A stretch of DNA of 64,000 bases, taken from IMG/VR virus record IMGVR_UViG_3300032217_000845, positions 1 to 64,000 of that record; one strand, given 5' to 3'. Made by a program: the position numbers and the translations under genes. The number at the start of each line of letters is the position of its first letter. Within the stretch, counting starts at the first letter, position 1. The DNA is from a virus. Shown one piece after another: positions 30,321 through 64,000 of the stretch. The notes below the pieces were generated by a model that ran no database searches, was not told where the DNA came from, and saw only the letters and a program-made list of their open reading frames with translations.

Positions 30321-30615
30321 GGGGATGACTGGTTTCGACAGTTGTCTTGATGTTAGTGAAGCAAGCAGAGATGACAGTATCTCTTGAATCTGTCAAAACA
30401 ATAAATGCTAATACATCTGCATACGCTCTAGCCGCGTGATTTAATCGCAACGCTTCGGCCCCTGACAAAGCACTAGTTCTAGGTGGGCAGTCAGGTTTTA
30501 AATAAGTAGAACAACCCCCTGCATTACCATTGCATTACCGTGGTTGGTAGAACCTAAGCTTGTAGAAGAATAACTGAATGTCCGCTGGACCGGGGTTCGA
30601 TTCCCCGCATCTCCA
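30321..30615 (+). ncRNA. ssrA: tmRNA; tag peptide (A)ANTSAYALAA
   Basis: 5' GGGGATG..GG.TTCGAC pairs with 3' CATCTCC-A with a G3:U wobble; T-arm CGGGG-TTCGATT-CCCCG; ATAAAT|GCT resume context; tag at 30407-30439 ends YALAA*. Confidence 0.95.
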
Positions 30616-30673
30616 CGCTTGTAGACAAAGGAGCGTAAAGCGGTCTACCCGTCCTAGGCAACGGAATCTTCAA

Positions 30674-30872: not shown

Positions 30873-30944
30873 TGACCATTAGCTCAACGGCAGAGCAGAG
30901 AGCTGTTAACTCTAAGGTTCCTGGTTCGAATCCAGGATGGTCAG
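30873..30944 (+). tRNA. tRNA-Asn (GTT)
   Basis: TGACCAT/ATGGTCA acceptor stem, GCTC/GAGC D-arm, CT-GTT-AA loop, GGTTCGAATCC T-arm; no encoded CCA. Confidence 0.95.
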
Positions 30945-32791: not shown

Positions 32792-32863
32792 GCCCCGATA
32801 GCTCAACGGTAGAGCACCGCTCTTGTAAAGCGGGGGTTGTGGTCTCGGAATCCACTCGGGGCT
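32792..32863 (+). tRNA. tRNA-Thr (TGT) with atypical T-arm
   Basis: GCCCCGA/TCGGGGC acceptor stem, GCTC/GAGC D-arm, CCGCT-CT-TGT-AA-AGCGG; T-arm GTGG-TCTCGGAAT-CCAC. Confidence 0.85.
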
Positions 32864-49822: not shown

Positions 49823-49851
49823 AGTATAGCACTCGACCGACATAAAGTCAA
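49823..49851 (-). promoter_or_regulatory. leftward sigma-A-type promoter
   Basis: Minus strand reads TTGACT-17 nt-TATACT with an extended TG. Confidence 0.65.
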
Positions 49852-50015
49852 ACACTTAGATACTTCTAAATAGAGAAGACATACTTTTAGAAAAAACGAA
49901 TACAAGCGACTAAGACCCTCTACGGAAAAAACGAATACAACTAAACTCATCAGCCGACACTCTGATTAGTAATAAGAAGTTGCTAAATGTCCGAGGGTGT
50001 GCTACTCTCTCTGGT

Positions 50016-50579
50016 ATGGAAATCACAACACTAACTAGACACGAATACACCACAGAACGAGTTGCCAAGCACACAGGCAGTTTGGAGGGTTGCTATGACG
50101 ACTTCCACGTTGGCGAAGTCAATGGCGTAGTTATCTACATAGGAACTGACTACGCTGGCACGATTGACCCTGCCAAGAACCCTTTGAGGTTCTCGGACTA
50201 CTCTGCGAAAGAGATGAAAGGCTTTCAGGAGTATTGGGGACATTGGGACGCTATCAACAAGCACCTCCACAACAAGACCACAAAACCGGGCTGGGGTCTT
50301 ATCAACCTAGTTGTCTATGGCTTTGTAAATGGCATACAGATTGGCGACCCTACAAATGTTCTACACGCTGTTCCAACAGGTTTCACGCCAGAGGCAAACA
50401 GGATAGACGCAGGGGAACTTGTCTGGGTAGAGGTAGAACAGGCTGTAATGGATTGGCTCAACTATCCAGATAGCCAGCCAACACTTCACGCAATAGCAGA
50501 GGCAAAGCGTAAGGAGGCTGTTGCTCTATTCACAGCGAGCCTAGACCTAATCCAGCCTCTCGCCACGCTGATAAAATAA
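50016..50579 (+). CDS. hypothetical early protein (leaderless)
   Basis: TTGCTA-17-TACTCT promoter ends 7 nt before the ATG at 50016. Confidence 0.7.
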   Translation: MEITTLTRHEYTTERVAKHTGSLEGCYDDFHVGEVNGVVIYIGTDYAGTIDPAKNPLRFSDYSAKEMKGFQEYWGHWDAINKHLHNKTTKPGWGLINLVVYGFVNGIQIGDPTNVLHAVPTGFTPEANRIDAGELVWVEVEQAVMDWLNYPDSQPTLHAIAEAKRKEAVALFTASLDLIQPLATLIK

Positions 50580-50674
50580 ATCAGAAATGAACTTGACAAC
50601 TTCGCATTAGTAGTGTAAAGTCGTCAGTAGTTGGAAACCTCCAACGCACAAACTCCGAAAGGACGGAAATACAA

Positions 50675-51154
50675 ATGGCAACAGGAACTATCGTTGGCAA
50701 GGGACTTTACTTAGAGTTCGTTCCAACAGACACCACCACTCCTAGCACTAAGGTAATGCAGGTGCTATTCACACCAGAGGGTATTGACGAGGCTGGCAAC
50801 TATGTTCAGTTCTCAATGCACTCTCGCACTATCTCTGAAACTTCACCTCGCAAACAATGGAGGATTACGAAGTGTGGCACAGAGAATAAAGAGTTGCTTT
50901 CACTTGGCTCTGTTGGACAGGTCAAGGCACAGGAACTCGCTGTCCAAATGGTAGAACGCTTTGAGAAATCACTAGAACGAGCAGTTATGCCAGACAAGAC
51001 AAATCCAACTTGGAAACTTCGGTCTAAGCCAATCGCTGTGGAAATCACTTCCTTTGACTTGTCTGAAATCACAGATTGGAAAACCCCTCTGCCAGCACTA
51101 CGCAGAATACAGAAATGTCGTGTAGCACTTGACTTCCCCGAGAAGTTAGTGTAA
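50675..51154 (+). CDS. hypothetical early protein
   Basis: Own promoter (TTGACA-17-TAAAGT) and GAAAGGACGG RBS. Confidence 0.75.
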   Translation: MATGTIVGKGLYLEFVPTDTTTPSTKVMQVLFTPEGIDEAGNYVQFSMHSRTISETSPRKQWRITKCGTENKELLSLGSVGQVKAQELAVQMVERFEKSLERAVMPDKTNPTWKLRSKPIAVEITSFDLSEITDWKTPLPALRRIQKCRVALDFPEKLV

Positions 51155-51189
51155 GGTCAATACTACAAACCGATAAGGACGGAAAACAA

Positions 51190-52212
51190 ATGACTACAAT
51201 CGCACCAAGCACCACTCCAACTACCGAGTTGGACGACATCTATCCAGACCTTGCTAAACTTGTGTATGGAGTTGCTATTCAGACACTAGACGCTGGCTCT
51301 GTGCCAGCAGGTCTTGATAGCCTACTTCCTACTGCTGGTCGTGCTAACCTCCGAGCAAAGGGAGGCGACACCACCACTAGCAAGAAAGCAAAGGTAGAAC
51401 TATTGGCAGAACCAATCACAGGTGCTACCACCTACACCAGACCAAATGGTCGTGAGTATTATGCTCGTCAATGGGGCGAACACTCTGACGTGGAAGTCTG
51501 TCGCAAGGCTCGGGATAACAAGCAGTTTATCCTACTATACGGAAATCCTGGCTGTGGTAAGACAGCACTCGTTGAGGCTAGTTTCGGGGACGACCTATAC
51601 ACCATTATTGGAACAGGCGATACAGAGGTTGGCGACTTCCTCGGTGGCTATGTCCAAACTCCAAGTGGAGGCTTTGAGTGGATTGACGGAGTTCTAACCC
51701 GAGCAGTTGAGGAGGGCAAAGTCCTCCTGATTGACGAGGTTGGTCTGATTGACCCGAAAGTTATGTCGCTGGTCTATGGACTAATGGACGGCAGAGATGA
51801 ACTCGTCATTACCTCCAATCCAGAACGAGGCACTATCAAAGCCAAGCAGGGGTTCTATGTAATCTGTGCGACTAACCCTAACGCTGTTGGAGTTCGTCTA
51901 TCAGAGGCTCTGCTATCTCGCTGTGTTATTCAGGCTGAAATGACTACTGATTGGTCGCTTGCCAAGAAGTTAGGTGTGCCAGCCTCGGCTACCACGCTTG
52001 CTCAAAACCTGTCTAAGAAACAACTAGCAGGTGAAGTATCTTGGTCGCCACAGTTCCGAGAGTTGGAGGCGTTTAGGGACTTGTCCAAGACCTTTGGAAC
52101 TAAGTGGGCAGTTGCCAACCTAATCGCAACAGCACCCGAAATGGATAGACCTGTCGTGATAGATGTGGCTACCCGAGTATTCGGTGAGGATTGCCGACCA
52201 GCCAAGATTTAG
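51190..52212 (+). CDS. MoxR/CbbQ/CobS-like AAA+ ATPase
   Basis: GNPGCGKT, W.DG.L..A, LLIDE, ATNP, LSEALLSR. Confidence 0.9.
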   Translation: MTTIAPSTTPTTELDDIYPDLAKLVYGVAIQTLDAGSVPAGLDSLLPTAGRANLRAKGGDTTTSKKAKVELLAEPITGATTYTRPNGREYYARQWGEHSDVEVCRKARDNKQFILLYGNPGCGKTALVEASFGDDLYTIIGTGDTEVGDFLGGYVQTPSGGFEWIDGVLTRAVEEGKVLLIDEVGLIDPKVMSLVYGLMDGRDELVITSNPERGTIKAKQGFYVICATNPNAVGVRLSEALLSRCVIQAEMTTDWSLAKKLGVPASATTLAQNLSKKQLAGEVSWSPQFRELEAFRDLSKTFGTKWAVANLIATAPEMDRPVVIDVATRVFGEDCRPAKI

Positions 52213-52338
52213 CACTCCGTCCTGTGCTAATAGGGGGAGGTCAAAGAAGTTGCGAAATGGACTTGACTTCCCCCGACAACTCTGCTACTATCTTACTAGG
52301 TCAGAAACGCTGACCAGAAAATCAGGAAGGATTTTCTA

Positions 52339-54147
52339 ATGGGACACTATTCCAGACTAGCAACACGCACCAGCACCACGCCTCCTGCTTGGCTCAAAAC
52401 CTGCTCGCAGATTGGCACACTCGCTAACACTTGGGCTAATCGTGGCGACCTCGCTGTCTATGGTGGTGAGGACGCAGGTATGGGTGAGGCTCTCGCTTGC
52501 TTTATTCACAGCACAGCAGAGATTGAGGTCAATCTACCAATCGCTTTCGGTAAGGCAACCACGCCTGAAATGGTGGGCGACCTAACAGAACGCTACAACC
52601 AATACGAGTTCCCCGAGGCAACAGGCGTAATCCTCCACGAGGCGTTTCACGCTAGATACTCGGAGTGGAACTACGAACTTATGGACGCTGAAACTAAGAC
52701 AGAGCCAAAGGTTCGGGACGCTTTTATGTTGTTGGAGGAAAGTCGTATTGAGGGGCTGGCTGTCTATCACTTCCCCGAGAACGCATTATTCCTACGAGCC
52801 TCCTCAATGGGGCTGTCTTTCGCAGAGGCAGAAACCTCTATGGAAAAGATGTCTAAGACAGGTGCTTTCGCACACCTCGCAGGTCTGACCCTTGCCAGAG
52901 TTTCGGCAGGTGTCCTTGACGAGTTTGATGTCGCTGGTATCTACAACAGAGTTGCCGAGGTCTTGGGCGAGAAGTGCCTGAAAACTTTGGAGGCTATCTG
53001 GGTAGAGTTCCAGACACTAGACAACACGCTAAACGCTGACCTACTTCGTGGGATTGACCTTGCTCGTAAATGGATAGAGGCTATCAAGGAACGAGCAGAG
53101 GAACGAGGCGAACCAGCAGAACCAGAGTTCGGTGAGGGTATTCCTATTCCACAGGAACTAGCAGAGGCTCTGTCCGAGATTATGGAGGCTCTGGGTGAGG
53201 CTATGGAGGAAACCAAGTCTGCCACAGCAGAGGCTCTGGGTGAGCAACAGCAGGACGAGAACCTGAAAGAGGAAATCAAGGAACGCCAATCCAAAGCCAA
53301 TACCAAAGAGGAACGCAAGGCAGAGGCAGACAGGGTGTTCTCGCACAACTCCACTCTCGGTCAATCTGGTAGCAGTTCCCGATTGGAAAGCACTCGTCCC
53401 CCGAAAGGTGAGGAACGAGCAGGGGCAGTAAAGTTGGCACAGATGTTAGAGAAAGCCAAGTATGTAGAGAGGTCTGCCACAGAGATAGCAACCACTATTC
53501 CACAGGGTCGCCTACGCACTCGGGCTGTCGTCCAAAAGAAAGCGTTGGAGGCTAAGGGCATTAGGTCTGACCTCCCGACTTGGAGGGCTACCAAGCACAA
53601 GCACACCACAGACCCTATCTTGTCTATCGGTGTAATGGTAGATGTATCTGGCTCTATGGGTTCGGCTATGAACCCTATGGCGAGTATGGCTTGGATTTTA
53701 TCCGAGGCTGGTCGCAGAGTTCAGGCTAGAACTGCTATGGTCTATTATGGCTCGGGTGTCTTTCCAACTCTCAAAGTTGGACAGCACTTGGAGGAGGTCA
53801 AGGTCTGGACAGCACCAGACGGAACAGAGGAGTTTGGTCAGGCTTACAAAGCACTTGACGGAGTTCTCGGTCTGACTTATGCCGAGGGCGTGAAGTTGCT
53901 CGTAATCGTATCTGACGGACACTACCGACCAGACCAAGAGAAACAAGTGGTCAAGGCTCTCGCAGAGTGCGACAAGGCTGGCGTGGGAGTTCTCTGGATT
54001 ACACCTGCCGAGTGCCGAGGTGGAAACACCAGCCTCATTAGTGGGACAAATGCCACGCACCTAAACATTACGGACACAGCCTCAATCGCAACTGCTATCG
54101 GCAGGTCGGCAACCGAGGCTCTGACTAAGATTGGAGGGCGAGTGTAA
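52339..54147 (+). CDS. VWA-domain protein with an N-terminal HExxH domain (CobT-like partner)
   Basis: HEAFH, LEESRIE; MIDAS DVSGSM, T, VSDG. Confidence 0.88.
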   Translation: MGHYSRLATRTSTTPPAWLKTCSQIGTLANTWANRGDLAVYGGEDAGMGEALACFIHSTAEIEVNLPIAFGKATTPEMVGDLTERYNQYEFPEATGVILHEAFHARYSEWNYELMDAETKTEPKVRDAFMLLEESRIEGLAVYHFPENALFLRASSMGLSFAEAETSMEKMSKTGAFAHLAGLTLARVSAGVLDEFDVAGIYNRVAEVLGEKCLKTLEAIWVEFQTLDNTLNADLLRGIDLARKWIEAIKERAEERGEPAEPEFGEGIPIPQELAEALSEIMEALGEAMEETKSATAEALGEQQQDENLKEEIKERQSKANTKEERKAEADRVFSHNSTLGQSGSSSRLESTRPPKGEERAGAVKLAQMLEKAKYVERSATEIATTIPQGRLRTRAVVQKKALEAKGIRSDLPTWRATKHKHTTDPILSIGVMVDVSGSMGSAMNPMASMAWILSEAGRRVQARTAMVYYGSGVFPTLKVGQHLEEVKVWTAPDGTEEFGQAYKALDGVLGLTYAEGVKLLVIVSDGHYRPDQEKQVVKALAECDKAGVGVLWITPAECRGGNTSLISGTNATHLNITDTASIATAIGRSATEALTKIGGRV

Positions 54148-54237
54148 TCGGCTCGCCTCCACAAGAACCCGATAGGGATTGAGCAACCGAGGAGTTTCCG
54201 TCCCCTTTCACCTCAACTGCTCTCGCTATTGGTAGAG

Positions 54238-54273
54238 AACCCCTGACAACTTCCCCTTTGGTCAGGGGTTTTC
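54238..54273 (+). terminator. intrinsic terminator with a C/U-rich loop
   Basis: AACCCCTGAC / GTCAGGGGTT followed by TT. Confidence 0.75.
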
Positions 54274-54470
54274 GCTTACCCTGACCGACACACAATGTGT
54301 CCAGCAAAAGCATCTCTGCTGGAACTTCGTATCAACTAATCCGAAGTCAGCCTGAGCTGCCGAGATGGTCGCCTTGTATTCGTTTTTTCCAAACCGACAC
54401 GCCTCCTCGCCTACTTGACAACTTCGTATTAGTTATGGTAAGGTCGTAGTATCAACCGAAAGGGAAACAA

Positions 54471-54767
54471 ATGGACGACAGAGAAATAGCAACTAACGCA
54501 TTAGTCCTACTAGGGGCAACTGCCGAGGGCTGTGCCGAGAATGGATTGGCTAATCCAATCCTGTATCAAAGTTTGGAACTAGCAATAGAACTAGCAGAAC
54601 ACCTAGACGAACCTGACCTAGTAGTGCTACTCAAATCAGCGTTGATTGGAGTGGGCGAGGGGATTGAGGAAACTATGGCTATCGTCAAACAAATCAAATC
54701 GCAGTTTGACTTTATGAACACAAGCGAGTATAATCAGGACACGACACCTAACAAGGAGGACAACTAA
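54471..54767 (+). CDS. hypothetical protein
   Basis: Promoter and GAAAGGG RBS. Confidence 0.7.
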   Translation: MDDREIATNALVLLGATAEGCAENGLANPILYQSLELAIELAEHLDEPDLVVLLKSALIGVGEGIEETMAIVKQIKSQFDFMNTSEYNQDTTPNKEDN

Positions 54768-55663
54768 TGCCAAACTGGGTCTATACATCTATGGCAGTAT
54801 CAGGTAAGAAAGACGACCTGCTCGCCTTTGCTAAGAAAGCCAGCCAGCAACACGAAACTCTATGGCTCACCGAGAGGTGGAAACGCAACGAGGACGGCAC
54901 GAACACCGAAGTCCCCGAGGAGGAACGCAAGATTGAGAAAGAACTATCTCCACCAAGTCCTATCTCGTTCTGGAACTTCTTAGCACCAACAGAGGAGGAA
55001 CTGCCTTACTACTTTGGACACGCAACCAAGCCAGAGGACGAGGCTGACCCTGACGCAACTTCCGAGGAACGACTAGCAAAGGCTCTGTTGTTTGAGGGCT
55101 CGGGCTGGTATGATTGGAATGTTCGCAACTGGGGCTGTAAGTGGGACGCCAATGACGAGGAACTGGACACCGACCTAGACACGCTACAACCACACGATAG
55201 CCTGTCGTATCGTTTCTCTACGGCTTGGTCTCCTGCCGAGGGCGTGTTTCGTGCTATGACCGAACAGCACCCCGAACTATCCTTTGAGTTCTCTTGCGAG
55301 GAGGAACAGGGCTGGGGCGTGGTCTATGACGGCGAGAACGGCTCGCTATCTGTGGCTGACGAGTGGGAGATACCGAACAGCCACGCTGACTATGTGGCGA
55401 GGGATAACGAGGACGGCTGTGCCTGTGCGAGAGATGACGACCAAGAGGATTGGTATTCCGATTGTCCTAGACCGAGTGTTGAGGTTGTCGTAGTGGTAGA
55501 ACACCGATACAAGATTACAGCACCGACCATAGCCGAGGCTTGGGAACTTGCTCTCAACGGCAACCCTGCTGACCTGACGGCAAGCCTGATAGAGGGCGAG
55601 ACTACTGCCTTTGTGATAGGCGAGGACGGCAAGCGTATCTACCCGACCTTAGAGAACGCATAA
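54767..55663 (+). CDS. YubB/DUF1281-like ferredoxin-fold protein
   Basis: MPNW, WYDWNVRNWGCKWDA, FSTAWSP, HPELSF...EE.G. Confidence 0.75.
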   Translation: MPNWVYTSMAVSGKKDDLLAFAKKASQQHETLWLTERWKRNEDGTNTEVPEEERKIEKELSPPSPISFWNFLAPTEEELPYYFGHATKPEDEADPDATSEERLAKALLFEGSGWYDWNVRNWGCKWDANDEELDTDLDTLQPHDSLSYRFSTAWSPAEGVFRAMTEQHPELSFEFSCEEEQGWGVVYDGENGSLSVADEWEIPNSHADYVARDNEDGCACARDDDQEDWYSDCPRPSVEVVVVVEHRYKITAPTIAEAWELALNGNPADLTASLIEGETTAFVIGEDGKRIYPTLENA

Positions 55664-55707
55664 CGGCTCGCCTTGACTAATCAGACGGATTGGTGTAGGG
55701 TAGCCTT

Positions 55708-55941
55708 ATGAGCAAGAACGCAACCGAGGAGTTTGTAGATGTCCTGATTACTTGGGACACCGAGCAAACCGATACAGATGAAGTCGTAGTAGCAATCGGG
55801 GACGGGTCGGTAGTCTATGACGAGGACTTCGCCTTTGACCCCCGAGTGTATTTCTACTTTGATAACCGAGAGCAGTTTGAGTTAGCAAAGACCAAAATAA
55901 TAGAGGACATAAACTTCCAAATCCTACGGGTTTTGGACTAG
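55708..55941 (+). CDS. acidic hypothetical protein (leaderless)
   Basis: TTGACT-17-TAGGGT just upstream; D..VYFYF motif. Confidence 0.65.
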   Translation: MSKNATEEFVDVLITWDTEQTDTDEVVVAIGDGSVVYDEDFAFDPRVYFYFDNREQFELAKTKIIEDINFQILRVLD

Positions 55942-55958
55942 CAAGAAACGGAGTAAAA

Positions 55959-56192
55959 GTGCCAAAGACAAAGCAGATAGATACTTGGGAGTGGTTCATA
56001 GAACGCTACCAAGAACTCGGCTACAAATCACTAAATCAGTTTGCTATCGCAGAGGGCTTTCAGAAGTCCAGCCTTAGCAGATACTTCCACAAGCAAAGAC
56101 AAATGCCAGCAGATACCTTGGTGGCTGTTTGCCTTGCTCTCAAAGTCAAGCCAGAGGATTTGCTGGTTGCTCTGAACGAGTGGAAACGCTAG
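55959..56192 (+). CDS. XRE/Cro-like HTH protein
   Basis: SLNQFA...FQKSSLSRYF...L..VC.AL.V.PEDL. Confidence 0.8.
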   Translation: MPKTKQIDTWEWFIERYQELGYKSLNQFAIAEGFQKSSLSRYFHKQRQMPADTLVAVCLALKVKPEDLLVALNEWKR

Positions 56193-56428
56193 ACCAACCC
56201 CGATAGGGAAACACCTGAGCAAGTGTTCTAAACTGCTCGCCACAATCTGCCTCCGTTTGTATTCGTTTTTTCCTCGGACTTGCGAAATGTCGGAGGCTGT
56301 GATACACTCGCTAATGTGAAGTTCTCCGATAGGACGACACACCAGAGCAAATGAACTTGACAAAGTTTCGTAAGTCTGGTAAGTTCTAAATGTAAAGCCC
56401 AATGATACTAAGTAGATAAGGAAATCAA

Positions 56429-56806
56429 ATGGCAACTACAAAGAGCACCACCACTAAGGGACAGGTTATCCTGACCACCACCAATGAGCCAGAGGTTCGC
56501 CTCTCGGCAAAGGGACAGAAAGCAGTTCGGGAACTCCGAGACGCACACAACTTGGAAAAGCAAGTTGCCGAAATCGTCAAGGCTAGCAGAGATGTTATCC
56601 TCAACGAACTAGGGAACGAGCAGACCAAGTTTGGAACAGACGCAAAGGGTAAGCGTCTGGTCAAAATCCACCTCATTACCCCGAAAGACCCAACACGCTA
56701 CAACACAGCAGAGTTGGTAGCGTTCCTCGCAAAGACACAGCCAGAGGTTCTGGAAATGTTTAGAGCAGAGGACGCAAAGGCGACCACCCGAGTTCTTACT
56801 CTCTAA
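56429..56806 (+). CDS. hypothetical protein
   Basis: Tandem promoters and TAAGGA RBS; followed by a terminator. Confidence 0.7.
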   Translation: MATTKSTTTKGQVILTTTNEPEVRLSAKGQKAVRELRDAHNLEKQVAEIVKASRDVILNELGNEQTKFGTDAKGKRLVKIHLITPKDPTRYNTAELVAFLAKTQPEVLEMFRAEDAKATTRVLTL

Positions 56807-56825
56807 CGAGAGTAAGCCAGAAAAG

Positions 56826-56866
56826 CCCCGACAGACAGTTATCCCCTTTCACTCTGTCGGGGTTTT
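56826..56866 (+). terminator. intrinsic terminator with a C/U-rich loop
   Basis: CCCCGACAGA / TCTGTCGGGG followed by TTTT. Confidence 0.8.
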
Positions 56867-56986
56867 CGCCTATCTGGTTTTGGCTCGTTTGTATTCGTTT
56901 TTTCCTCGCATCTAAAATCTTCGGGTTTGACAACGACACACTAATACGAAGTTGTAAATGTCAGAGGTTTATGGTAGAGTGCTGGT

Positions 56987-57436
56987 ATGGACAAAAGACA
57001 AACTAACAACTGCGAAATCTGTGGCGAGTTATTTACTGACCTACCACTTGACGAGGAGTGTTCTTGCTCAAAGAGAAAGGACGCTGCTTTCTATGTCAAT
57101 AGTGATGGTGGCGAGTTCGTGTGGAACCCTAAACTCAATGAGGACGAGGGAGAGAAACACGAATACTATGTTGTGCGTAATGGGGAAATGCGTATCAAGG
57201 CGACAGATGGCAAGGGTAGAGATTATGTCCTACGCTACACAGAGGACTTAGAGGCTTTCGGTATCACGACAGACGAGCAACTTTACGAGGCAAGCACAGA
57301 CGAGGAAAACTTCTATTGGGATATGAACTCTTGGTTTGAGGTCTGCTGTGATTTTGACGAGGCTTACTCTGATGTCTTTGACGACCTTGACAGAGCCATA
57401 GCAGAGGCAGTAAGATTACGAAAGGAAGGACACTAA
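56987..57436 (+). CDS. acidic hypothetical protein (leaderless)
   Basis: TTGTAA-17-TAGAGT ends 6 nt before the ATG. Confidence 0.7.
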   Translation: MDKRQTNNCEICGELFTDLPLDEECSCSKRKDAAFYVNSDGGEFVWNPKLNEDEGEKHEYYVVRNGEMRIKATDGKGRDYVLRYTEDLEAFGITTDEQLYEASTDEENFYWDMNSWFEVCCDFDEAYSDVFDDLDRAIAEAVRLRKEGH

Positions 57437-57723
57437 TGAAACTACGAATAGCGTTTGGCGACACTCTTAGAGAGATACGACAAGACCAACACAGAACTCT
57501 TAGAGAGGTGTCTGTAAAGTCTGGCGTGGCACTTGGCTATGTATCGGAAGTAGAGAGAGGGCAGAAAGAGGCTTCATCGGAAGTCTTGGAAAGCCTGACC
57601 AACACGCTTGGCGTGTCTATGGCTGACTTCCTAATCCTTACAGCGTTGCGTCTAGGTGCTGTCGCTGTCCCCGACACAGCAGAAACCCTACTTGACGAAT
57701 ACACCGACCTTGTGGTAAGATAA
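57436..57723 (+). CDS. clgR: ClgR-like XRE transcriptional regulator
   Basis: GDTLR..R..Q.RTLREVS....VALGY.SEVERGQKEASSE.L, the actinobacterial ClgR signature. Confidence 0.8.
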   Translation: MKLRIAFGDTLREIRQDQHRTLREVSVKSGVALGYVSEVERGQKEASSEVLESLTNTLGVSMADFLILTALRLGAVAVPDTAETLLDEYTDLVVR

Positions 57724-57742
57724 GGGAAAGGAAAGGACGACA

Positions 57743-57952
57743 ATGAGCAGACAAGTTTATTTTGTAATCGGTGTTGATTTAGACGACAAAACAGTTTTCA
57801 TAGATGACGGCACATTTACGGCTCGCTTTGGTAAAGACGAGCAGGTATGGGACACCGATAAACAAGAGTGGCGAGAATACGAGGGCGAGGAACAAGAGGA
57901 ATACGACCTCGCCTTAGAAATCCTCAACACCGAGAAGTTGAGGGACGACTAA
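57743..57952 (+). CDS. acidic hypothetical protein
   Basis: Strong RBS; 69 aa. Confidence 0.7.
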   Translation: MSRQVYFVIGVDLDDKTVFIDDGTFTARFGKDEQVWDTDKQEWREYEGEEQEEYDLALEILNTEKLRDD

Positions 57953-58257
57953 TGGAATACGACCTATACTCACCCGAGAGGAACTTCTCGGCTATCCCTG
58001 ACCTGAAACTTGTAAAGATTACAGGGGACGACAGGGACAGAAGTATTCACTTCCTCTGGCGAGGCGATAGACAATGGCTCGCTATGAGTAAGGATAATCC
58101 TTACGAGGATAACTGCTGGCTTGTAGTCAAGACCGACTACACAGACGAGTTTCAGGAGTTTCTTGACGAGGAACTCTCTGGCTACGATAGCCTAGAAAGC
58201 ACCTTTGAGTTATCGGACATTATTCCAACCGAATACTCAATAGAGTTTGATAACTAA
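57952..58257 (+). CDS. acidic hypothetical protein
   Basis: TAATG coupling; start at MEYDL. Confidence 0.65.
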   Translation: MEYDLYSPERNFSAIPDLKLVKITGDDRDRSIHFLWRGDRQWLAMSKDNPYEDNCWLVVKTDYTDEFQEFLDEELSGYDSLESTFELSDIIPTEYSIEFDN

Positions 58258-58266
58258 ATAGACTTG

Positions 58267-58525
58267 CTTGATACACGCTGAACCATTTTGGTGCGTGGGC
58301 AGAACTAACTACCTGCCTATTATCAAGGAAACCGAGTGAAATCTCGCTAAACTACGGACAACACGCTCGGTGGTGAATACGCCTCTGGTGGAAGTAGCAG
58401 GTCGGGTCTAGAACTGACCAAGAGTTTATTCTCAATGCGAAATAGCACAATGACGCAAAGTAGCCCCTTGTGTGTTCGTCCGAACCTAAGACCAGATAGC
58501 CATAACGCTTTCTGGTCTTTCTCTT
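58267..58525 (+). ncRNA. candidate large structured RNA followed by a terminator
   Basis: Nested helices CTTGATA/TATCAAG, CACGC/GCGTG, GGCAG/CTGCC, CGGACAACAC/GTGTT-C-GTCCG, GGTCGG/CTGACC; terminator AAGACCAGA/TCTGGTCTT. Confidence 0.6.
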
Positions 58526-58673
58526 TTTGGTGAGGTGTTGTATTCGTTTTTTCTCTACGCCTACTGTGGAAAGAGGGAACTTCGCATTAGTGTTTCGTTC
58601 TTGACAAATGTCAGAGGAGTATGCTAGTATCACTATGTAGTCAGAAAGTCTGACACAGAAAGGGTCTAGTCCT

Positions 58674-59159
58674 ATGGGATTGGATATGTATTTAGAGGCT
58701 CGCAAGTATGTAAGTGGATACTCTCACAGACCTATTGACGAGCAGAACGAGTATGAGGAAGTGCTGAACTCGGTAGGTATGTCAAGAACAGACCTAACAG
58801 CAGAGGCAAGTCCTTTCGCTAATGTAAGTATAAATGTTGCTTATTGGCGTAAGGCTAATCAGATACACGCTTGGTTCATCAACAACTACGCCAAAGATGG
58901 TGTAGATGATTGTAGCCCTGTCCATCTTGGCGAGAGATACCACCTTAGTATTCTAAGAAACCTCTGCCAAGAGGTCATTGACGACCACAGCAAAGCAGAG
59001 GAACTTCTGCCTGTTTCATCTGGCTTCTTCTTTGGGTCAGACGAGTATGGCGAATACTACTTCCAAGACTTAGAGAACACCATTGAGCAGTTGGATAAGT
59101 TGCTCTCTAATCCTAAGTTTGCTGAGGGCTGGGACTTCATCTACCAAGCAAGTTGGTAG
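58674..59159 (+). CDS. conserved phage hypothetical protein
   Basis: MGLDMYL, YWRKANQIHAWF, LLP..SGFFFG...Y.EYY, YQASW. Confidence 0.8.
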   Translation: MGLDMYLEARKYVSGYSHRPIDEQNEYEEVLNSVGMSRTDLTAEASPFANVSINVAYWRKANQIHAWFINNYAKDGVDDCSPVHLGERYHLSILRNLCQEVIDDHSKAEELLPVSSGFFFGSDEYGEYYFQDLENTIEQLDKLLSNPKFAEGWDFIYQASW

Positions 59160-59336
59160 CCACAAACTAAGCACGACCCCTTAGCACACGCTAGGGGGTT
59201 TTGCTTTACCTGTTTGCTGGCGAGGTGTATTCGTTTTTTCAGACGACACGGCACGGCACGGGAACTTGACTAAACAAATGAACTATGATACTATGTAGAT
59301 ACAACGGGCGAACAGGAAGTAGCCTGAAAGGGATAA

Positions 59337-59708
59337 ATGGAAACTACAACTATTACGGGTCTGGTAGCAACCACACCACGACACCTAGTATCAGCAGACG
59401 GCTTGCCGATTACTTCTTTCCGATTGGCGAGCAGTAATCGCAGGTTTGACCGAGCCACTATGGAGTGGGTGGACGGCGAGACTAATTGGTATACGATTAC
59501 CTCTTTCCGCACACTCGCAATCAACACCGCTACATCTATCAGCAAGGGCGACCGCATTGTTGTATCAGGCACACTTCGTATTCGTGATTGGGACAACGGC
59601 GAACGGGTAGGAACTAGCGTTGAGTTAGAGGCGAGCAACATTGGACACGACTTAGCGTGGGGGACTACCACCTTTGTCCGAACCGTTCATAAAGCAGACA
59701 CCGAATAA
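59337..59708 (+). CDS. ssb: single-stranded DNA-binding protein, actinobacterial type, without acidic tail
   Basis: TITGLVAT.P, FRLAS..RRFDR...WVDG.TNWYTI..FR.LA, KGDR.VV.G.LR.RDW, IGHDL.WGT. Confidence 0.9.
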   Translation: METTTITGLVATTPRHLVSADGLPITSFRLASSNRRFDRATMEWVDGETNWYTITSFRTLAINTATSISKGDRIVVSGTLRIRDWDNGERVGTSVELEASNIGHDLAWGTTTFVRTVHKADTE

Positions 59709-59885
59709 CCGAACGGCTCGCCTAACGGCGTGGGATTGGCAAGCCTAACGGCTTGCCTTTCTGCGTTTGACGGCAAGCCTATTGGCGAGCAGACGGCAAG
59801 CCTAACGGGTGTGTCAGGCTTGACAAAGACCGACCGCTATGGTAGGCTAGCAGAGCAGACAACCCTGCCAACCGATAGGACAGAA

Positions 59886-60128
59886 ATGACAACCGCACTA
59901 CCCGAACTAACCGAGATGACCACCAAGACCGACCAACCGATAGTCGCACTCTACAACCGAGACGACAGACTAACGGGTATCGTAAATGGCTGGAAAGTCG
60001 CTGACGGAGTAATGGAAATGGACGAGAGTATCAAGCGAGCAGTAGCGACTAGCGAACTGACTATGGCTGAACTCGTTGAGATTGACCAGAGTATCGCCAG
60101 ACTTCGCAACTTGCGTGGAACTCTCTAA
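59886..60128 (+). CDS. hypothetical protein
   Basis: TTGACA-17-TAGGCT promoter at 59820 and AGGA RBS place the start at 59886. Confidence 0.65.
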   Translation: MTTALPELTEMTTKTDQPIVALYNRDDRLTGIVNGWKVADGVMEMDESIKRAVATSELTMAELVEIDQSIARLRNLRGTL

Positions 60129-60304
60129 ACAAAACTAGCCAAGTGGAAACACTTGGTTTTAGTTTTAGCCCGAAGTGTATTCGTTTTTTCCCTGCGTAAA
60201 TTTTGCTGAAAATAAAATCCTAAATGAGTTTGATTTTGTCGGGAGTATGTGGTAGGGTATAAATGTAGTCAGAAATACTGATTATCCAATCACTCTGAAA
60301 GGGT

Positions 60305-60667
60305 GTGGTAAAAGTGGAAACACTAAACCAAGTAGTAATAACAAAGTCGGTCAATGGCGTAGAAGTTGCCACGCTATCTGAACTAGGGATTTTGCTAGGC
60401 GTAAAGCCAAGCACTATCTTTGTCTGGATAGATAAATACAAGAACTTCCCTAAGCCTGTTGCCGAAATCAAAGGTGCTGGTCGTAATGGGCGTTCTCGCT
60501 TGTTCCCGATTGACGCTGTTCAGGTGTGGCACAAGAAACACATTACGACACGCAAGGCTAACGAATGGACAGGTATTCTTTCCAAGTTGAGCCAAATCTC
60601 AAAGGCTAGTCCTGCCACTTACAAAATCATTCTGGAAATGATTGACGAAGCGTCAGGTCGCAAGTAG
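60305..60667 (+). CDS. AlpA/excisionase-like HTH protein
   Basis: LSELG.LLGV.PSTI.VW....NFPKP...LF....V..W. Confidence 0.75.
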   Translation: MVKVETLNQVVITKSVNGVEVATLSELGILLGVKPSTIFVWIDKYKNFPKPVAEIKGAGRNGRSRLFPIDAVQVWHKKHITTRKANEWTGILSKLSQISKASPATYKIILEMIDEASGRK

Positions 60668-60847
60668 CCACACGACACTAGACTTACCCCCTGCTAATCA
60701 CAGGGGGTTTTCTGGTTTTGGGACACGACTAGTTTGTATTCGTTTTTTCCATCACGACACACTTCGCACTAACACGCTTGACTTTATTTAGAAACTATGC
60801 GATAATAGAGATGTTGTCGGGAAAGGCTCGGCACGGAAAGGGATAAA

Positions 60848-61171
60848 GTGGGCGACAGGTCTGCGATTATCATTGAGAGTGAAAGGTTCATCACGCCTAT
60901 CACGCTATACGGACACTGGTCGGGCAGGAACAACCTTGCTGCTGTGGCTAGTGTGTTGGAAACTACGGACAGGGTTGGCGACCCGTCTTATCTCACGGCT
61001 CAACTGTTTTACAAGTTTGCTGTGGAACTTGGCAAGTATGACGGAAATCTGTCTTTCGGTATTGACGCTTTCGGTGGGACACCACAGGAAATAAATGCGA
61101 CTATGGACACCGATACGATTGTCGTAAATGCCGATAATGGAACTTGGCGTTGGGCGATACCCGTAGAGTAA
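60848..61171 (+). CDS. conserved phage hypothetical protein
   Basis: MGDRS.I, LY.HW.G, R.GDPSYL. Confidence 0.75.
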   Translation: MGDRSAIIIESERFITPITLYGHWSGRNNLAAVASVLETTDRVGDPSYLTAQLFYKFAVELGKYDGNLSFGIDAFGGTPQEINATMDTDTIVVNADNGTWRWAIPVE

Positions 61172-61187
61172 TCTTTATACGAACGCA

Positions 61188-61224
61188 GGTTAGCACTCAC
61201 GCAACACGAGTGCTAACCTCTTTT
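61188..61224 (+). terminator. intrinsic terminator
   Basis: AGGTTAGCACTC / GAGTGCTAACCT followed by a T-rich tail. Confidence 0.8.
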
Positions 61225-61384
61225 CGTTTTTGCTTAGGTAGAAGTTGTATTCGTTTTTTCCGGCAGCGACAGATAACTTCGCATTAGCGACACGAAGTTA
61301 GACAGACTTGCGTTTGTCGCTAGTGTGTGATACAATGAAGTTATTACACAGGCGAGAAACCTAAGTATCGCTGAAAGGGAAACA

Positions 61385-61807
61385 ATGACAGAAATAGAAA
61401 CAGAGATACAAACTCTCACGGCAGAGTTGGATAGCGATTGTTCTTGCGAGGACTATGACGAGGACACAGACACAAGCAAGCCTAGTGAAAGTTGCTTCGG
61501 AGATTGTTGGACAGAAAGTAAAGACGACTTTACTGAACACTTGCTCAAACCTTACCTTGTTGTAAAGGGTTGGAAAATGGACACGCCTATCAAGGTTGCT
61601 TCATCACGAATGACTTGGCAAGGCATTAGAGGTTGGGCATACACTACGCCTGAACGCTTGGTTGATACGCTTACTCTCAATGGAGATTTTCGCCTAGTGT
61701 TTGAGTTTGACGGAAACGACCTAACTGCTATTCGCTATTCTCACGACGAGCCAATGGGAACAGGTAAGTTTGAGATTGAGTTGTCTGACGAAAGCGACGA
61801 CGACTAA
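61385..61807 (+). CDS. conserved phage hypothetical protein
   Basis: Promoter and GAAAGGG RBS; M.W.GI.G, YSHDEPMG. Confidence 0.75.
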   Translation: MTEIETEIQTLTAELDSDCSCEDYDEDTDTSKPSESCFGDCWTESKDDFTEHLLKPYLVVKGWKMDTPIKVASSRMTWQGIRGWAYTTPERLVDTLTLNGDFRLVFEFDGNDLTAIRYSHDEPMGTGKFEIELSDESDDD

Positions 61808-62018
61808 ACACGACACGAGAAAGGTCGCTGACTTCGGTTGGCGACTTTTTTTGTATCTGCCGATTACGGAGTTGTATTCGTTTTTTCCTCACCCCTGCCG
61901 AACACGACTTCCCTGTTATCTATTTGTTATAAAACTTTCTACACTTCGGGAATAAATGAACTTGACTTTTAGTTATACTCTATGTAATAATGTAGTTATG
62001 GACAACGAAAGGGAAACA

Positions 62019-62546
62019 ATGAACAACTACGAGAAGTCATACAGCAACGAGCCGTTTCTAAATGGTGCGTTAGACATACCTATTTGGAGTGAAATACTGC
62101 CGAACTTTTGGCTAGGTGGAACTGCCGATAACGATTGTGTTGGCGATAAGCACTTTCAGTTTGATAGGCAGGACATCTCTATCAAGCCTAGAAACTTTGA
62201 TAGCGTTTATACTTTCTACGCTTACGCTAACCCTGTTGATTGGCTAGTTAGAGAGTTTAGGTTTGGCTACTTTGATAGTGGCGAAACTGACTTTGACTTA
62301 GACGAGTTTAGGCGTATTGCTCTAATGGCTCACGCTGATTGGAAGCGTGGCGAGAGAGTGCTAATGCGTTGCCAAGCAGGTCTAAACAGGTCAAGCCTAT
62401 TCTTTGCCTTAGTGCTTATGATTGACGGCTACACGGCACAAGAAGCGATTGACTTGATACGAGAGAAGCGACACGATAAGTGTCTATTCAATCCTCACTT
62501 CGTAGCGTGGTTGCTCAAACAAGACTTAGAGTTTTGGCGAGCATAA
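62019..62546 (+). CDS. dual-specificity/tyrosine phosphatase family protein
   Basis: SEILPNFWLGG, CX5R loop CQAGLNRS, AIDLIREKR, FNP.F. Confidence 0.88.
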   Translation: MNNYEKSYSNEPFLNGALDIPIWSEILPNFWLGGTADNDCVGDKHFQFDRQDISIKPRNFDSVYTFYAYANPVDWLVREFRFGYFDSGETDFDLDEFRRIALMAHADWKRGERVLMRCQAGLNRSSLFFALVLMIDGYTAQEAIDLIREKRHDKCLFNPHFVAWLLKQDLEFWRA

Positions 62547-62738
62547 ACTCACGCTAAGAAAACCTAACCCCCGTGAAAACTCACGGGGGATTTTCTTAGT
62601 GCGAAGTTGCGAAGGTGTATTCGTTTTTTCCTTACTCTACAAACACGGTGGAAGTATTACTTGCGTAAATCCATAAGGTATGGTAAGATAGTTAGGTAGT
62701 CAGAAAGTCTGGCACAATAGAAATCCTGAAAGGGAACA

Positions 62739-63062
62739 ATGCTAAAAATGGAAATAAATGGGACAGAAGTAGTTAGTCCTATGGAAATCGCAAGTCGCTT
62801 CGGAGTTAGTTTGCCTGCTGTTTATGTCTGGGCAAGGCGTTCGGATTTTCCGACACCACTACTAACGACAGGTGGCTCACAACGACCACGCCACATTTAC
62901 TCGGCTACCGAGATTGAGGCTTGGGTCGCTGAACACCTTGACGCTAAGGGTGGCAGGGGCAAGGCTCATCTAATCGGGCGTAGAGTTCTAGGGCTGGCAA
63001 CATCTAACCCTGAAATCTACAAGCAGATTGAGCAGTTGCTAGAAAGCACCGACACCGAATAA
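62739..63062 (+). CDS. AlpA/excisionase-like HTH protein (paralog of 60305)
   Basis: EIASRFGVS..AV.VW.RR.DFP.P...Y...EI.AW. Confidence 0.78.
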   Translation: MLKMEINGTEVVSPMEIASRFGVSLPAVYVWARRSDFPTPLLTTGGSQRPRHIYSATEIEAWVAEHLDAKGGRGKAHLIGRRVLGLATSNPEIYKQIEQLLESTDTE

Positions 63063-63257
63063 GGCTCTGAAAGAAACACGCTTACCCGAAAGGGTAGGCG
63101 TTTTCTTTTTTTGCTAATGCGAAGTTAGCCGAGTGTATTCGTTTTTTCCTTACACGCTGTCTAGCACGACACGCTAATAGTATGAACTTGCTTTTGTCGG
63201 TAGTATTTGGTATAATAGTTATGTAGTCAGAAAGACTGATTACAGAAAGGGAAACAA

Positions 63258-63572
63258 ATGGAAATCGCTTTACTAGGTTTCTTAGGTGTTGTATCGCTTA
63301 TGACTATCGGTGCTTTCTTGGTCGTAGTCTTGTGTGCGTTTATCATCTACAAGATAGACCCGACTTATGACGAGTTTGGTTTCTGGGGAAACTTCCGTAT
63401 GGAACTCTCCACTATCCTTGCTGGCAAGTTTGGCTACGAAGTATCACGACAAGAATACAAACAGGCTTACGACTTAGGTGTCAAAATGAGCGACAGAACT
63501 CTACAAGGTAGCAAGAACAGACACCCTGCCAACAATGATGGTAAGTTGCCTTACGAACTCTACAAATACTAA
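63258..63572 (+). CDS. membrane protein
   Basis: Long N-terminal hydrophobic segment; RHPA motif. Confidence 0.7.
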   Translation: MEIALLGFLGVVSLMTIGAFLVVVLCAFIIYKIDPTYDEFGFWGNFRMELSTILAGKFGYEVSRQEYKQAYDLGVKMSDRTLQGSKNRHPANNDGKLPYELYKY

Positions 63573-63788
63573 GTAGAACTCACCGAGAGATTACCCCGTA
63601 GAGATACGGGGTTTTCTTTTACCCTGTGGGCTGGGAGTTGTATTCGTTTTTTCTATACCACTAATACGAAAGATAACAACTTGATAACAACACGATACAA
63701 AGATAGTAAATGGGCTTGTATTGTCATTAGATAGGAGTATAATCATAGGTATAGGAAAGTTTCCAAAGGGGAAACTGAAAGGGACAAA

Positions 63789-64000
63789 ATGACACTAGTA
63801 GCAGATACCAAGATTGGCACAGCAGTAGAAACCAAGATTGGCACAGCCGAGTTGAGTGCTGGTAGAGAACGCAAGAACTTCTACAAAGACGGAACTAGGG
63901 TTGCTCACATAGACAGGATTTACGCACCGAGCAGAGTGTTTATTGACTTGGGCGAGAGTGTCTGGGAACACCTGAACAACAGACACAATAGGGATTGGCA
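63789..64000 (+). CDS. hypothetical protein (3' truncated)
   Basis: TATAAT and GAAAGGG RBS; MTLVADTKIGTAVETKIGTA..., open to the window end. Confidence 0.65.
   Translation, partial: MTLVADTKIGTAVETKIGTAELSAGRERKNFYKDGTRVAHIDRIYAPSRVFIDLGESVWEHLNNRHNRDW

Follow-up and report, generated by a model that had tools for sequence, protein, structure and literature searches.

The question raised by this locus is what is housed in a gap of 416 bp between two genes of a phage genome, set within a run of small genes on the + strand. The window, that is the whole stretch of 64,000 nucleotides analysed, comprises the first 64 kb of a virus record 125.8 kb long, and the gap and the genes on either side of it are as follows.

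57436–57723, + strand: HTH protein (ClgR-like, PF01381), assigned by profile match
57743–57952, + strand: 69-aa ORF (p69), between the HTH gene and the 100-aa ORF
57955–58257, + strand: 100-aa ORF (p100), whose stop codon is the TAA at 58255
gap of 416 bp between the 100-aa ORF and the phrog_7971 gene: houses the RNA element
58674–59159, + strand: phrog_7971 protein (p161), first gene 3' of the RNA
59337–59708, + strand: SSB, second gene 3' of the RNA

A sequence-only reading of the window had described this gap as a multi-branched RNA of two domains followed by a terminator, ending the transcription unit that contains the ClgR-like gene. The position of the element is as described: in the window no promoter of the RNA's own was found, and the RNA is transcribed as the last part of the HTH operon. 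A promoter-like site (58601–58630, TTGACA-18-TAGTAT with TG) lies between the RNA and the next gene. The surroundings are those of a conserved block with the order AAA5 ATPase, vWA protein, Api92-like, RecE-like, p149, HTH, p161 and SSB, in which the SSB and RecE-like genes represent replication and recombination functions close to the RNA. Homologues of the window SSB in sequenced phages (625 records) are found exclusively in actinobacterial phages, all at less than 60% identity, and are distributed by host mainly over Mycobacterium (218), Arthrobacter (151) and Microbacterium (122). The runs that contain the phage DNA come from 16 studies, mostly labelled as freshwater.

Several other features of the region were observed. 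At 51190–54147 of the window a MoxR-type AAA5 ATPase is paired with a 602-aa protein that has a vWA domain at its C-terminus; the pair is conserved and stands first in the early block of almost every relative, whether or not the RNA is present. Strains that are otherwise near-identical differ by an indel of the 69-aa gene: a DNA contig (X5) skips 57735–57942 (208 bases), the region of this gene, and in the related locus L240 (related loci are given here as L numbers) there is no p69 match between the HTH gene and p100. A full-length tmRNA (30321–30618, 115.5 bits) and two tRNA genes (30873–30944 and 32792–32863) were located with Rfam models. Finally, GTATTCGTTTTTTC at 58540–53 is one copy of a recurrent 14-mer, present 14 times in the window and 41 times in the genome, and is outside the RNA element; it is invariant and at many cassettes stands between terminator and next promoter, and the variants in relatives end in ..CATTTTTTC or ..TATTTTTT.

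The + strand of 58246–58528 is predicted by RNAfold to fold with a minimum free energy of −93.1 kcal/mol, compared with −72.5 ± 4.9 kcal/mol in 200 dinucleotide shuffles (z −4.19); none of the 200 shuffles was as stable. Every helix that had been drawn by eye is present in the sequence at its position, and the two-domain, multi-branched fold is reproduced by both RNAfold and RNAalifold. Its parts are listed below.

58246–58263, + strand: 5' leader TTTGATAACTAAATAGAC, upstream of P1
58264–58273, + strand: 5' strand of P1, TTGCTTGATA, its third position in an odd G.G pair
58274–58297, + strand: P1a hairpin (CACGC, 3-nt bulge TGA, ACCA, loop, TGGT, GCGTG)
58298–58317, + strand: P1b hairpin (GGCAG, 10-nt loop, CTGCC)
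58321–58330, + strand: 3' strand of P1, TATCAAGGAA, pairing with 58264–58273
58331–58354, + strand: joiner AC, hairpin P2 and linker, CTAAACTA; P2 is CGAG TGAAAT CTCG at 58333–46
58355–58482, + strand: domain 2, closed by stem S
58355–66 / 58470–82, + strand: closing stem S, CGGACAACAC (58355–64) with GTGTT-C-GTCCG (58472–82)
58372–74 / 58463–65, + strand: helix H1 of domain 2, GGT with GCC
58375–80 opposite 58458–62, + strand: module 1 of domain 2, GAATAC opposite AAGTA
58388–90 / 58446–48, + strand: helix H3 of domain 2, GTG with CAC
58392–96 opposite 58439–45, + strand: module 2 of domain 2, AAGTA opposite GAAATAG
58397–99 / 58436–38, + strand: helix H4 of domain 2, GCA with TGC
58400–05 / 58414–19, + strand: hairpin Y of domain 2, GGTCGG with CTGACC, loop GTCTAGAA
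58407–58412, + strand: TCTAGA in the apical loop of hairpin Y, sole 6-nt palindrome in the RNA
58422–33, + strand: small hairpin of domain 2, GAG with CTC
58488–58528, + strand: 3' hairpin, AAGACCAGA ... TCTGGTCTT, with inner AGC/GCT stem and T-rich tail, intrinsic-terminator-like

P1 consists of CTTGATA (58267–73) paired with TATCAAG (58321–27) and can be extended to 58264–73 with 58321–30. Enforcing the short helices H1, H3 and H4 costs nothing in the window (−42.6 kcal/mol, equal to the minimum free energy). The terminator that had been proposed after domain 2 is seen as a stem (58488–58519) followed by the T-run TCTCTTTTT; it is terminator-like in form and is absent from a simple terminator scan, in which the loop limit is 8 nt. 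L119 and L173 have a common alternative apical sequence in this hairpin and different outer stems.

The leader contains TGA (58248), TAA (58255, the stop of the 100-aa ORF) and TAG (58259), three stop codons in three different frames, and because of this translation would be expected to halt before the fold whichever frame arrives there. The letters AACTAAAT and A.AC of the leader are kept throughout the family. Upstream ORFs stop at the leader TAA in the window, L240, L186, L002 and L119, and the same letters are non-coding in L165, L155, L149 and L188. As a separate observation, the 100-aa protein terminates within the leader (..EFDN, then stop), and its homologue in L165 (3464–3871), where the RNA is elsewhere, has 135 aa and continues beyond the same ..VEFE.. 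point; to judge from this pair, insertion of the RNA cassette seems to have truncated the 100-aa gene.

The absence of a credible ORF from the gap was borne out. The only + strand ORF of at least 30 aa within the element is one of 32 aa (58435–58533), and the window and L186 differ by single-base indels throughout the element, which shows that it is not coding. In L165, L155, L149 and L188 the element is free-standing between two genes, again with no + strand ORF of at least 30 aa. A promoter scan of L188 gave a site (TTGACA-17-TAGTAT with TG, 10/12) that ends about 28 nt before the core; in L165 and L309 the same scan gave no site ahead of the RNA, and one was seen by eye (TTGACA, 17 nt, TAGTCT or TAGCCT). 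In most other members, as in the window, the RNA starts at a stop codon. The element is also covered by contigs from three RNA-library (metatranscriptome) runs of three studies, with spans of 58284–58418, 58285–58481 and 58277–58465; the last has a depth of 56 and runs into adapter letters, and thus derives from a short fragment. Such contigs give neither strand, ends nor level, and such libraries may contain DNA, so this coverage is support rather than proof; the uncovered flanking genes in X19 and X20 were excluded from the evidence. Taken with the comparative data below, we consider it very probable that 58246–58528 (+ strand) is a genuine structured RNA gene.

Relatives of the element could not be recovered by simple similarity: blastn against 50,697 GenBank phage records gave no match, nor did blastn and nhmmer against the first 87 related loci. 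Loci were fetched through the neighbouring proteins, and inspection by eye showed L002 and L003 to have a gap in the corresponding position, its ends sharing words with the window (..ACTAAATAGACTTGC.. and ..GGAAACCGA, hairpin, TCGCTAAA..). Of the stretches picked out by word scans of viral contigs, 3 of 53 and 12 of 45 contained genuine members, and a metagenome word scan revealed the RNA in at least six loci among the 120 stretches listed. The covariance model R1 added L307 and the divergent L407, and scoring with R2 added four more. The family consists of at least 18 distinct sequences from 22 IMG/VR contigs (besides this record) and at least six metagenome loci: nine from two motif scans of viral contigs, three from the metagenome scan, one found with R1 near SSB genes, one near Api92-like genes, and four from two later motif scans scored with R2. 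The members are found on contigs of related, uncultured freshwater phages. Length across the family is 250–400 nt, the window copy being about 270–280 nt.

The conserved core comprises the leader (AACUAAAU..A.AC), P1, a 2-nt joiner, hairpin P2 and the linker UCGCUAAAC, in which UCGCUAAA is invariant; CCGA and TCGCTAAA are identical in all 18 sequences. P1 has 10 bp with one odd pair and encloses an insert of 45–115 nt whose branches vary by clade. The invariant columns are located in single-stranded joints outside P1, and the P1 interior is the least conserved part of the RNA. P1a is retained in groups A and B, and a group B counterpart of P1b (GGGTT/AACCC) occupies the same place. In L149 (2823–2983) and L188, P1a is duplicated with two additional hairpins between the copies, and domain 1 is enlarged from 96 to 160–161 nt. 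L119 has hardly any of domain 2, which leaves the core and the 3' hairpin as the minimal unit.

In the 18-sequence alignment, 216 of 216 cells in the P1 and P2 core are standard pairs, with changes on both sides in 6 of the 12 pairs, and 43 cells are doubly changed compared with 11.7 ± 2.9 in shuffles (0 of 500 shuffles reached 43). When partners were slid by 1–3 columns, merely 31.5–48.4% of cells paired. This alignment was fitted to the model and is biased to structure; the MAFFT alignment A1 gave the same pairs, the MAFFT alignments A2 and A3 misplaced P1 or domain 2 and were excluded from the counts, and the count is based on related sequences. By helix, the eight counted pairs of P1 are paired in 144 of 144 cells and five of them are changed on both sides; the four pairs of P2 are paired in 72 of 72 cells, the fourth being C-G in 12 sequences and G-C in 6. 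At the odd pair of P1, 12 sequences have G.G, five have U-A and one has C.A. Outside the core, the window and L186 are distinguished by compensatory changes at three pairs of stem S, one of hairpin Y and one of P2; H2 in group B is AGAA/UUCU or AGUU/AACU, and H3 is variously GUG/CAC, GAU/AUC or UGG/CCA. Stem S differs in sequence clade by clade at the same place, and in other clades often doubles as the terminator stem.

With regard to strand, the core helices contain eight G.U or U.G cells and no A.C cell, as fits an RNA of the + strand. The G.U pairs of hairpin Y are at different positions in the window and L186, and a T-rich tail is present 3' of the last stem on the + strand only. Folding energy is not striking in every member and does not by itself separate the strands: the − strand of the element gives a z of −2.66, and in the 12 members tested the + strand z ranged from −1.5 to −5.8 and was better than that of the − strand in just eight.

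The internal loops of domain 2 appear to be built from a familiar part. The bulged-G (sarcin-ricin or loop E) module has the consensus AGUA opposite GAA, each directly beside the same Watson–Crick helix, and the AGUA/GAA internal loops fit this consensus: the seven members of groups A and B all have GCA(G) after AGUA (ACAG in L155 and L165) and GAA after (C)UGC. A second AGUA/GAA copy flanks H1 (GGU or UGC with GCC or GCA). Domain 2 in groups A and B thus matches two bulged-G-like modules by sequence, the other clades being not clear in this respect.

Comparison with known families gave no counterpart. Rfam 15 returned three matches in the window (the tmRNA and the two tRNAs), none in the element; at E values up to 10 a single 17-nt match appeared (E 5; 11.6 bits, where the gathering score is 45), and in five relatives, at E up to 1, three matches were found, none at the RNA. 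ARAGORN found no tRNA or tmRNA gene in 58100–58700. That the earlier reading recognized no known riboswitch or ribozyme agrees with these searches, and the designation of a new phage non-coding RNA stands on compensatory changes in 18 relatives, presence in RNA libraries and the lack of an Rfam match. The outcomes named with that reading as speaking against it (homologues that do not covary, a fold no more stable than shuffles, a match to a known family) did not occur. A number of particular candidates were rejected. A bacterial Y RNA is not indicated, as no TROVE (Ro60) match was found in the 125.8-kb record, in a search that matched the control genomes, and the 5' and 3' ends are not joined in a conserved stem. 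Nor is the nearby vWA protein a suitable partner for a Y RNA, its sole profile match being VWA_CoxE, with no TROVE domain; it teams with the MoxR-type ATPase, also in relatives without the RNA. A retron, DGR or group II intron RNA was set aside on the basis that the record contains no RVT_1 (reverse transcriptase) match. No fit was seen by eye to a CRISPR-repeat mimic, an HDV-like or hammerhead layout, a k-turn or an RNase P substrate. Pairing with the genome-wide 14-mer was rejected as GAATAC is not rare (47 occurrences, about 31 expected) and the matches are at non-homologous places, and the 12 reverse-complement 11-mers found in the phage, compared with about 8.5 expected by rough arithmetic, give no signal of antisense targets. 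No description of the RNA was found by full-text search of the literature; one survey (PMC10690425) may include a fragment of it in its supplementary alignments. The family is new to Rfam and to the literature searched, that survey having been compared through its description of the candidates.

The RNA is an accessory cassette whose position varies between relatives. It follows an Api92-like gene in five members and the HTH operon in eight, and in clade D it precedes a p100-like gene. The RNA is followed directly by SSB in L119, L170 and L407, and by p161 and then SSB in the window, L186, L002 and L003; elsewhere the next gene is p149-like (L165, L149 and L188), RecE-like (L155) or another gene (L173). 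Only 11 of 58 SSB-anchored loci contain the RNA, an R2 search of 100 further related loci gave no match, and in L313 and L324 the block is kept with no room for the RNA; being missing from most relatives, it is dispensable. Cellular copies were not found in the genomes searched: 185,579 species genomes gave 40 motif matches, all of 26.9 bits or less with R1, where the 13 members known at that stage scored at least 84.5 bits, and 151 genomes sampled from the phylum of G001, a record titled Thermoleophilia, gave no match.

Of particular interest are the six-letter palindromes of the RNA, since they occur in an early arm that is almost palindrome-free: 24 are present in 49850–80000 where 471 are expected, which makes them about 20 times rarer. 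The comparison covered the window from 49850 to 64000, the record to 80000, and L309, L165, L305, L188, L173, L306 and L318. Tolerated palindromes differ between relatives, and the word in each RNA is of the kind that its own genome tolerates; TTAA, for instance, is absent from the window's arm, L173, L306, L318 and L240, and occurs 57–73 times in group B loci. A six-letter self-complementary word is carried by 14 of the 18 RNAs, ten of which have exactly one, and is absent from clade D (4 of 18). In groups A and B the word lies in the 8–9 nt apical loop of the homologous hairpin Y and reads UCUAGA in group A and GUUAAC (GTTAAC in DNA) in group B, a difference of two double changes with self-complementarity kept; hairpin Y and its palindromic loop together form a 20-bp near-palindrome. 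Other clades have the word in different domains: UCUAGA is in or at the edge of a domain 1 hairpin loop in L119, L173 and L307 and half within a stem in L170, ACUAGU is in a 14-nt apical loop in L002 and L003 (a fold made by eye that the script did not flag), and L407 also has ACUAGU. Between 50 and 70% of mononucleotide shuffles also give a hairpin of this kind, which makes that test uninformative, and the loop argument rests instead on the local rarity of palindromes; rough arithmetic from local densities puts the chance of a word in both Y loops at about 1 in 10,000 or rarer. A six-letter self-complementary loop is unable to pair within itself, and it suggests, by analogy, loop–loop pairing of two copies of the RNA. 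The kissing-loop dimerization hairpins of retroviruses are similar in having an 8–9 nt loop with a 6-nt self-complementary word and purine flanks, and in that the word varies by lineage and stays self-complementary, as do UCUAGA, GUUAAC and ACUAGU here. They differ in that they belong to a viral genome rather than to a phage non-coding RNA, whose dimer is a prediction and four of whose 18 members have no such word.

It is interesting to consider what such an RNA might do; the sequence-only reading had suggested a decoy, a scaffold or a ribozyme. With moderate confidence, we favour the explanation that this is a stand-alone, trans-acting structured RNA that is made early in infection and is carried by only some relatives. 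It would act in trans as a folded particle, being neither a message nor a switch for the neighbouring gene, and its working site would be the single-stranded joints that are conserved at the base of P1 and P2. Produced early in infection, it would bind or sequester a factor, most likely one of the host, and in most members it would pair with a second copy through the self-complementary hairpin loop. The combined picture of a dimeric decoy is tentative, and we would sooner expect it to prove wrong than right. More doubtful again is its fullest version, a self-assembling RNA particle in which a loop-paired dimer displays two AGUA/GAA platforms and the joints and serves as an early decoy or trap; the host factor might then be, for example, a nuclease of a defence system or a component of the machinery for translation or RNA handling.

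Several other explanations were weighed. One, which we regard as unlikely, is that the element is a cis-acting module at the 3' end of a message, stopping ribosomes, ending transcription and shielding the upstream message from 3' exonucleases, with no job in trans. A stop codon is indeed found at, or immediately before, the start of the RNA in the window, L240, L186, L002, L003, L119, L173, L307, L407 and clade D, the leader has its stops in three frames, and there is a terminator-like hairpin of the RNA's own. However, L165, L155, L149 and L188 have no upstream ORF in the unit, and L188 has a promoter ahead of the RNA; moreover, a multi-domain fold of 250–400 nt with invariant joints far exceeds what a terminator needs. 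The other cassettes of the same genome do without the RNA, the apical sequence of the 3' hairpin occurs only once in the window, and the core motifs GGAAACCGA and TCGCTAAA are each found in their own context only here. We think it still less likely that a riboswitch-like or protein-sensing attenuator is present, with domain 1 as sensor and the stem and T-run setting read-through into p161 and SSB. A junction-type architecture followed by a terminator stem, and the occurrence of SSB (L119, L170 and L407) or p161 and SSB (window, L186, L002 and L003) as the next genes, would be in keeping with such a device, but the P1 interior, where a ligand pocket would be expected, is the variable part and the invariant letters are outside it, the promoter-like site at 58601–58630 separates the RNA from the next gene, and the gene downstream varies (p149-like, RecE-like, p100-like or other).

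An element acting at the level of DNA (an origin, operator array or recombination site), in which inverted repeats merely resemble RNA helices, appears very improbable. In its favour are the nearness of the SSB and RecE-like genes, the position of the cassette among the early genes, which varies by relative, and the near-palindrome of DNA formed by hairpin Y with its loop; against it, the helix sequences covary rather than stay conserved, the core helices include G.U cells and no A.C, the G.U pairs of hairpin Y break DNA symmetry and not RNA pairing, the T-run is on one strand only, and the element is present in RNA libraries. To a self-cleaving or otherwise catalytic RNA, for example one that releases itself from the upstream message by cleavage at the conserved leader, we give a similarly slight chance. 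Invariant nucleotides in the strands that join helices are a property of small ribozymes, the RNA often lies directly 3' of an ORF, and two RNA runs have contigs with ends at 58284 and 58285, a weak hint; against this, those ends fall within the P1a hairpin and not in the leader, no Rfam ribozyme family matched at E up to 10, and the HDV-like and hammerhead layouts did not fit by eye.

A trans-acting structured RNA of this type can be compared with the few known from phages. The prohead RNA of phi29 is made from an early promoter, has an essential branched domain and a dispensable second domain, keeps its structure where the sequence has changed, and works as an oligomer; the RNA described here is likewise a phage RNA, encoded among early genes, with a branched core, a dispensable domain, and divergent sequence with kept structure. 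To our knowledge, prohead RNA is limited to phi29-like phages, where it is essential. In contrast, the present RNA is missing from most close relatives and so cannot be a required part of the packaging machine. GOLLD and ROOL are large ornate RNAs of phages and prophages, described in PMC12286853 as being of unknown function and without a known protein partner; GOLLD was first found in lake and marine metagenomes, its expression increases during phage lysis, and GOLLD, ROOL and OLE form homo-oligomers (PMC12286853). The present family resembles GOLLD and ROOL, as that account portrays them, in coming from lake phages, in having a conserved core beside a less conserved domain, and in a possible self-pairing loop, by which oligomerization is here inferred. 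It differs in having no match to their Rfam models, in its length of 250–400 nt (659 nt for the ROOL studied and more than 800 nt for many GOLLD RNAs in that account), and in its location among early genes, away from the tRNA genes at 30.9 and 32.8 kb. A survey of intergenic regions in IMG/VR 3.0 reported 8495 novel structured RNA candidates by covariation, with lengths of 29–151 nt (PMC10690425); as described there, these come from the same data source and rely on the same type of evidence, and are shorter than the present RNA.

Phage-borne ornate RNAs such as GOLLD and ROOL rank with the most poorly understood of large RNAs; only a handful of families are known, none with an assigned function in the account of PMC12286853. 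The family described here offers a compact invariant core, recognizable building blocks and a testable pairing loop, at a size (250–400 nt) that suits chemical probing, native gels and cryo-EM. Its location is the early arm of abundant lake phages, a region free of restriction sites in which genes for takeover and counter-defence are expected, and its patchy presence and movement between cassettes indicate an accessory device rather than a housekeeping one. If an RNA decoy or RNA-only assembly proves to be true, the repertoire of phage strategies would be wider than now recognized, with this family as a tractable model; it would represent an RNA-only device for takeover or counter-defence, smaller than GOLLD and ROOL and unrelated to both.
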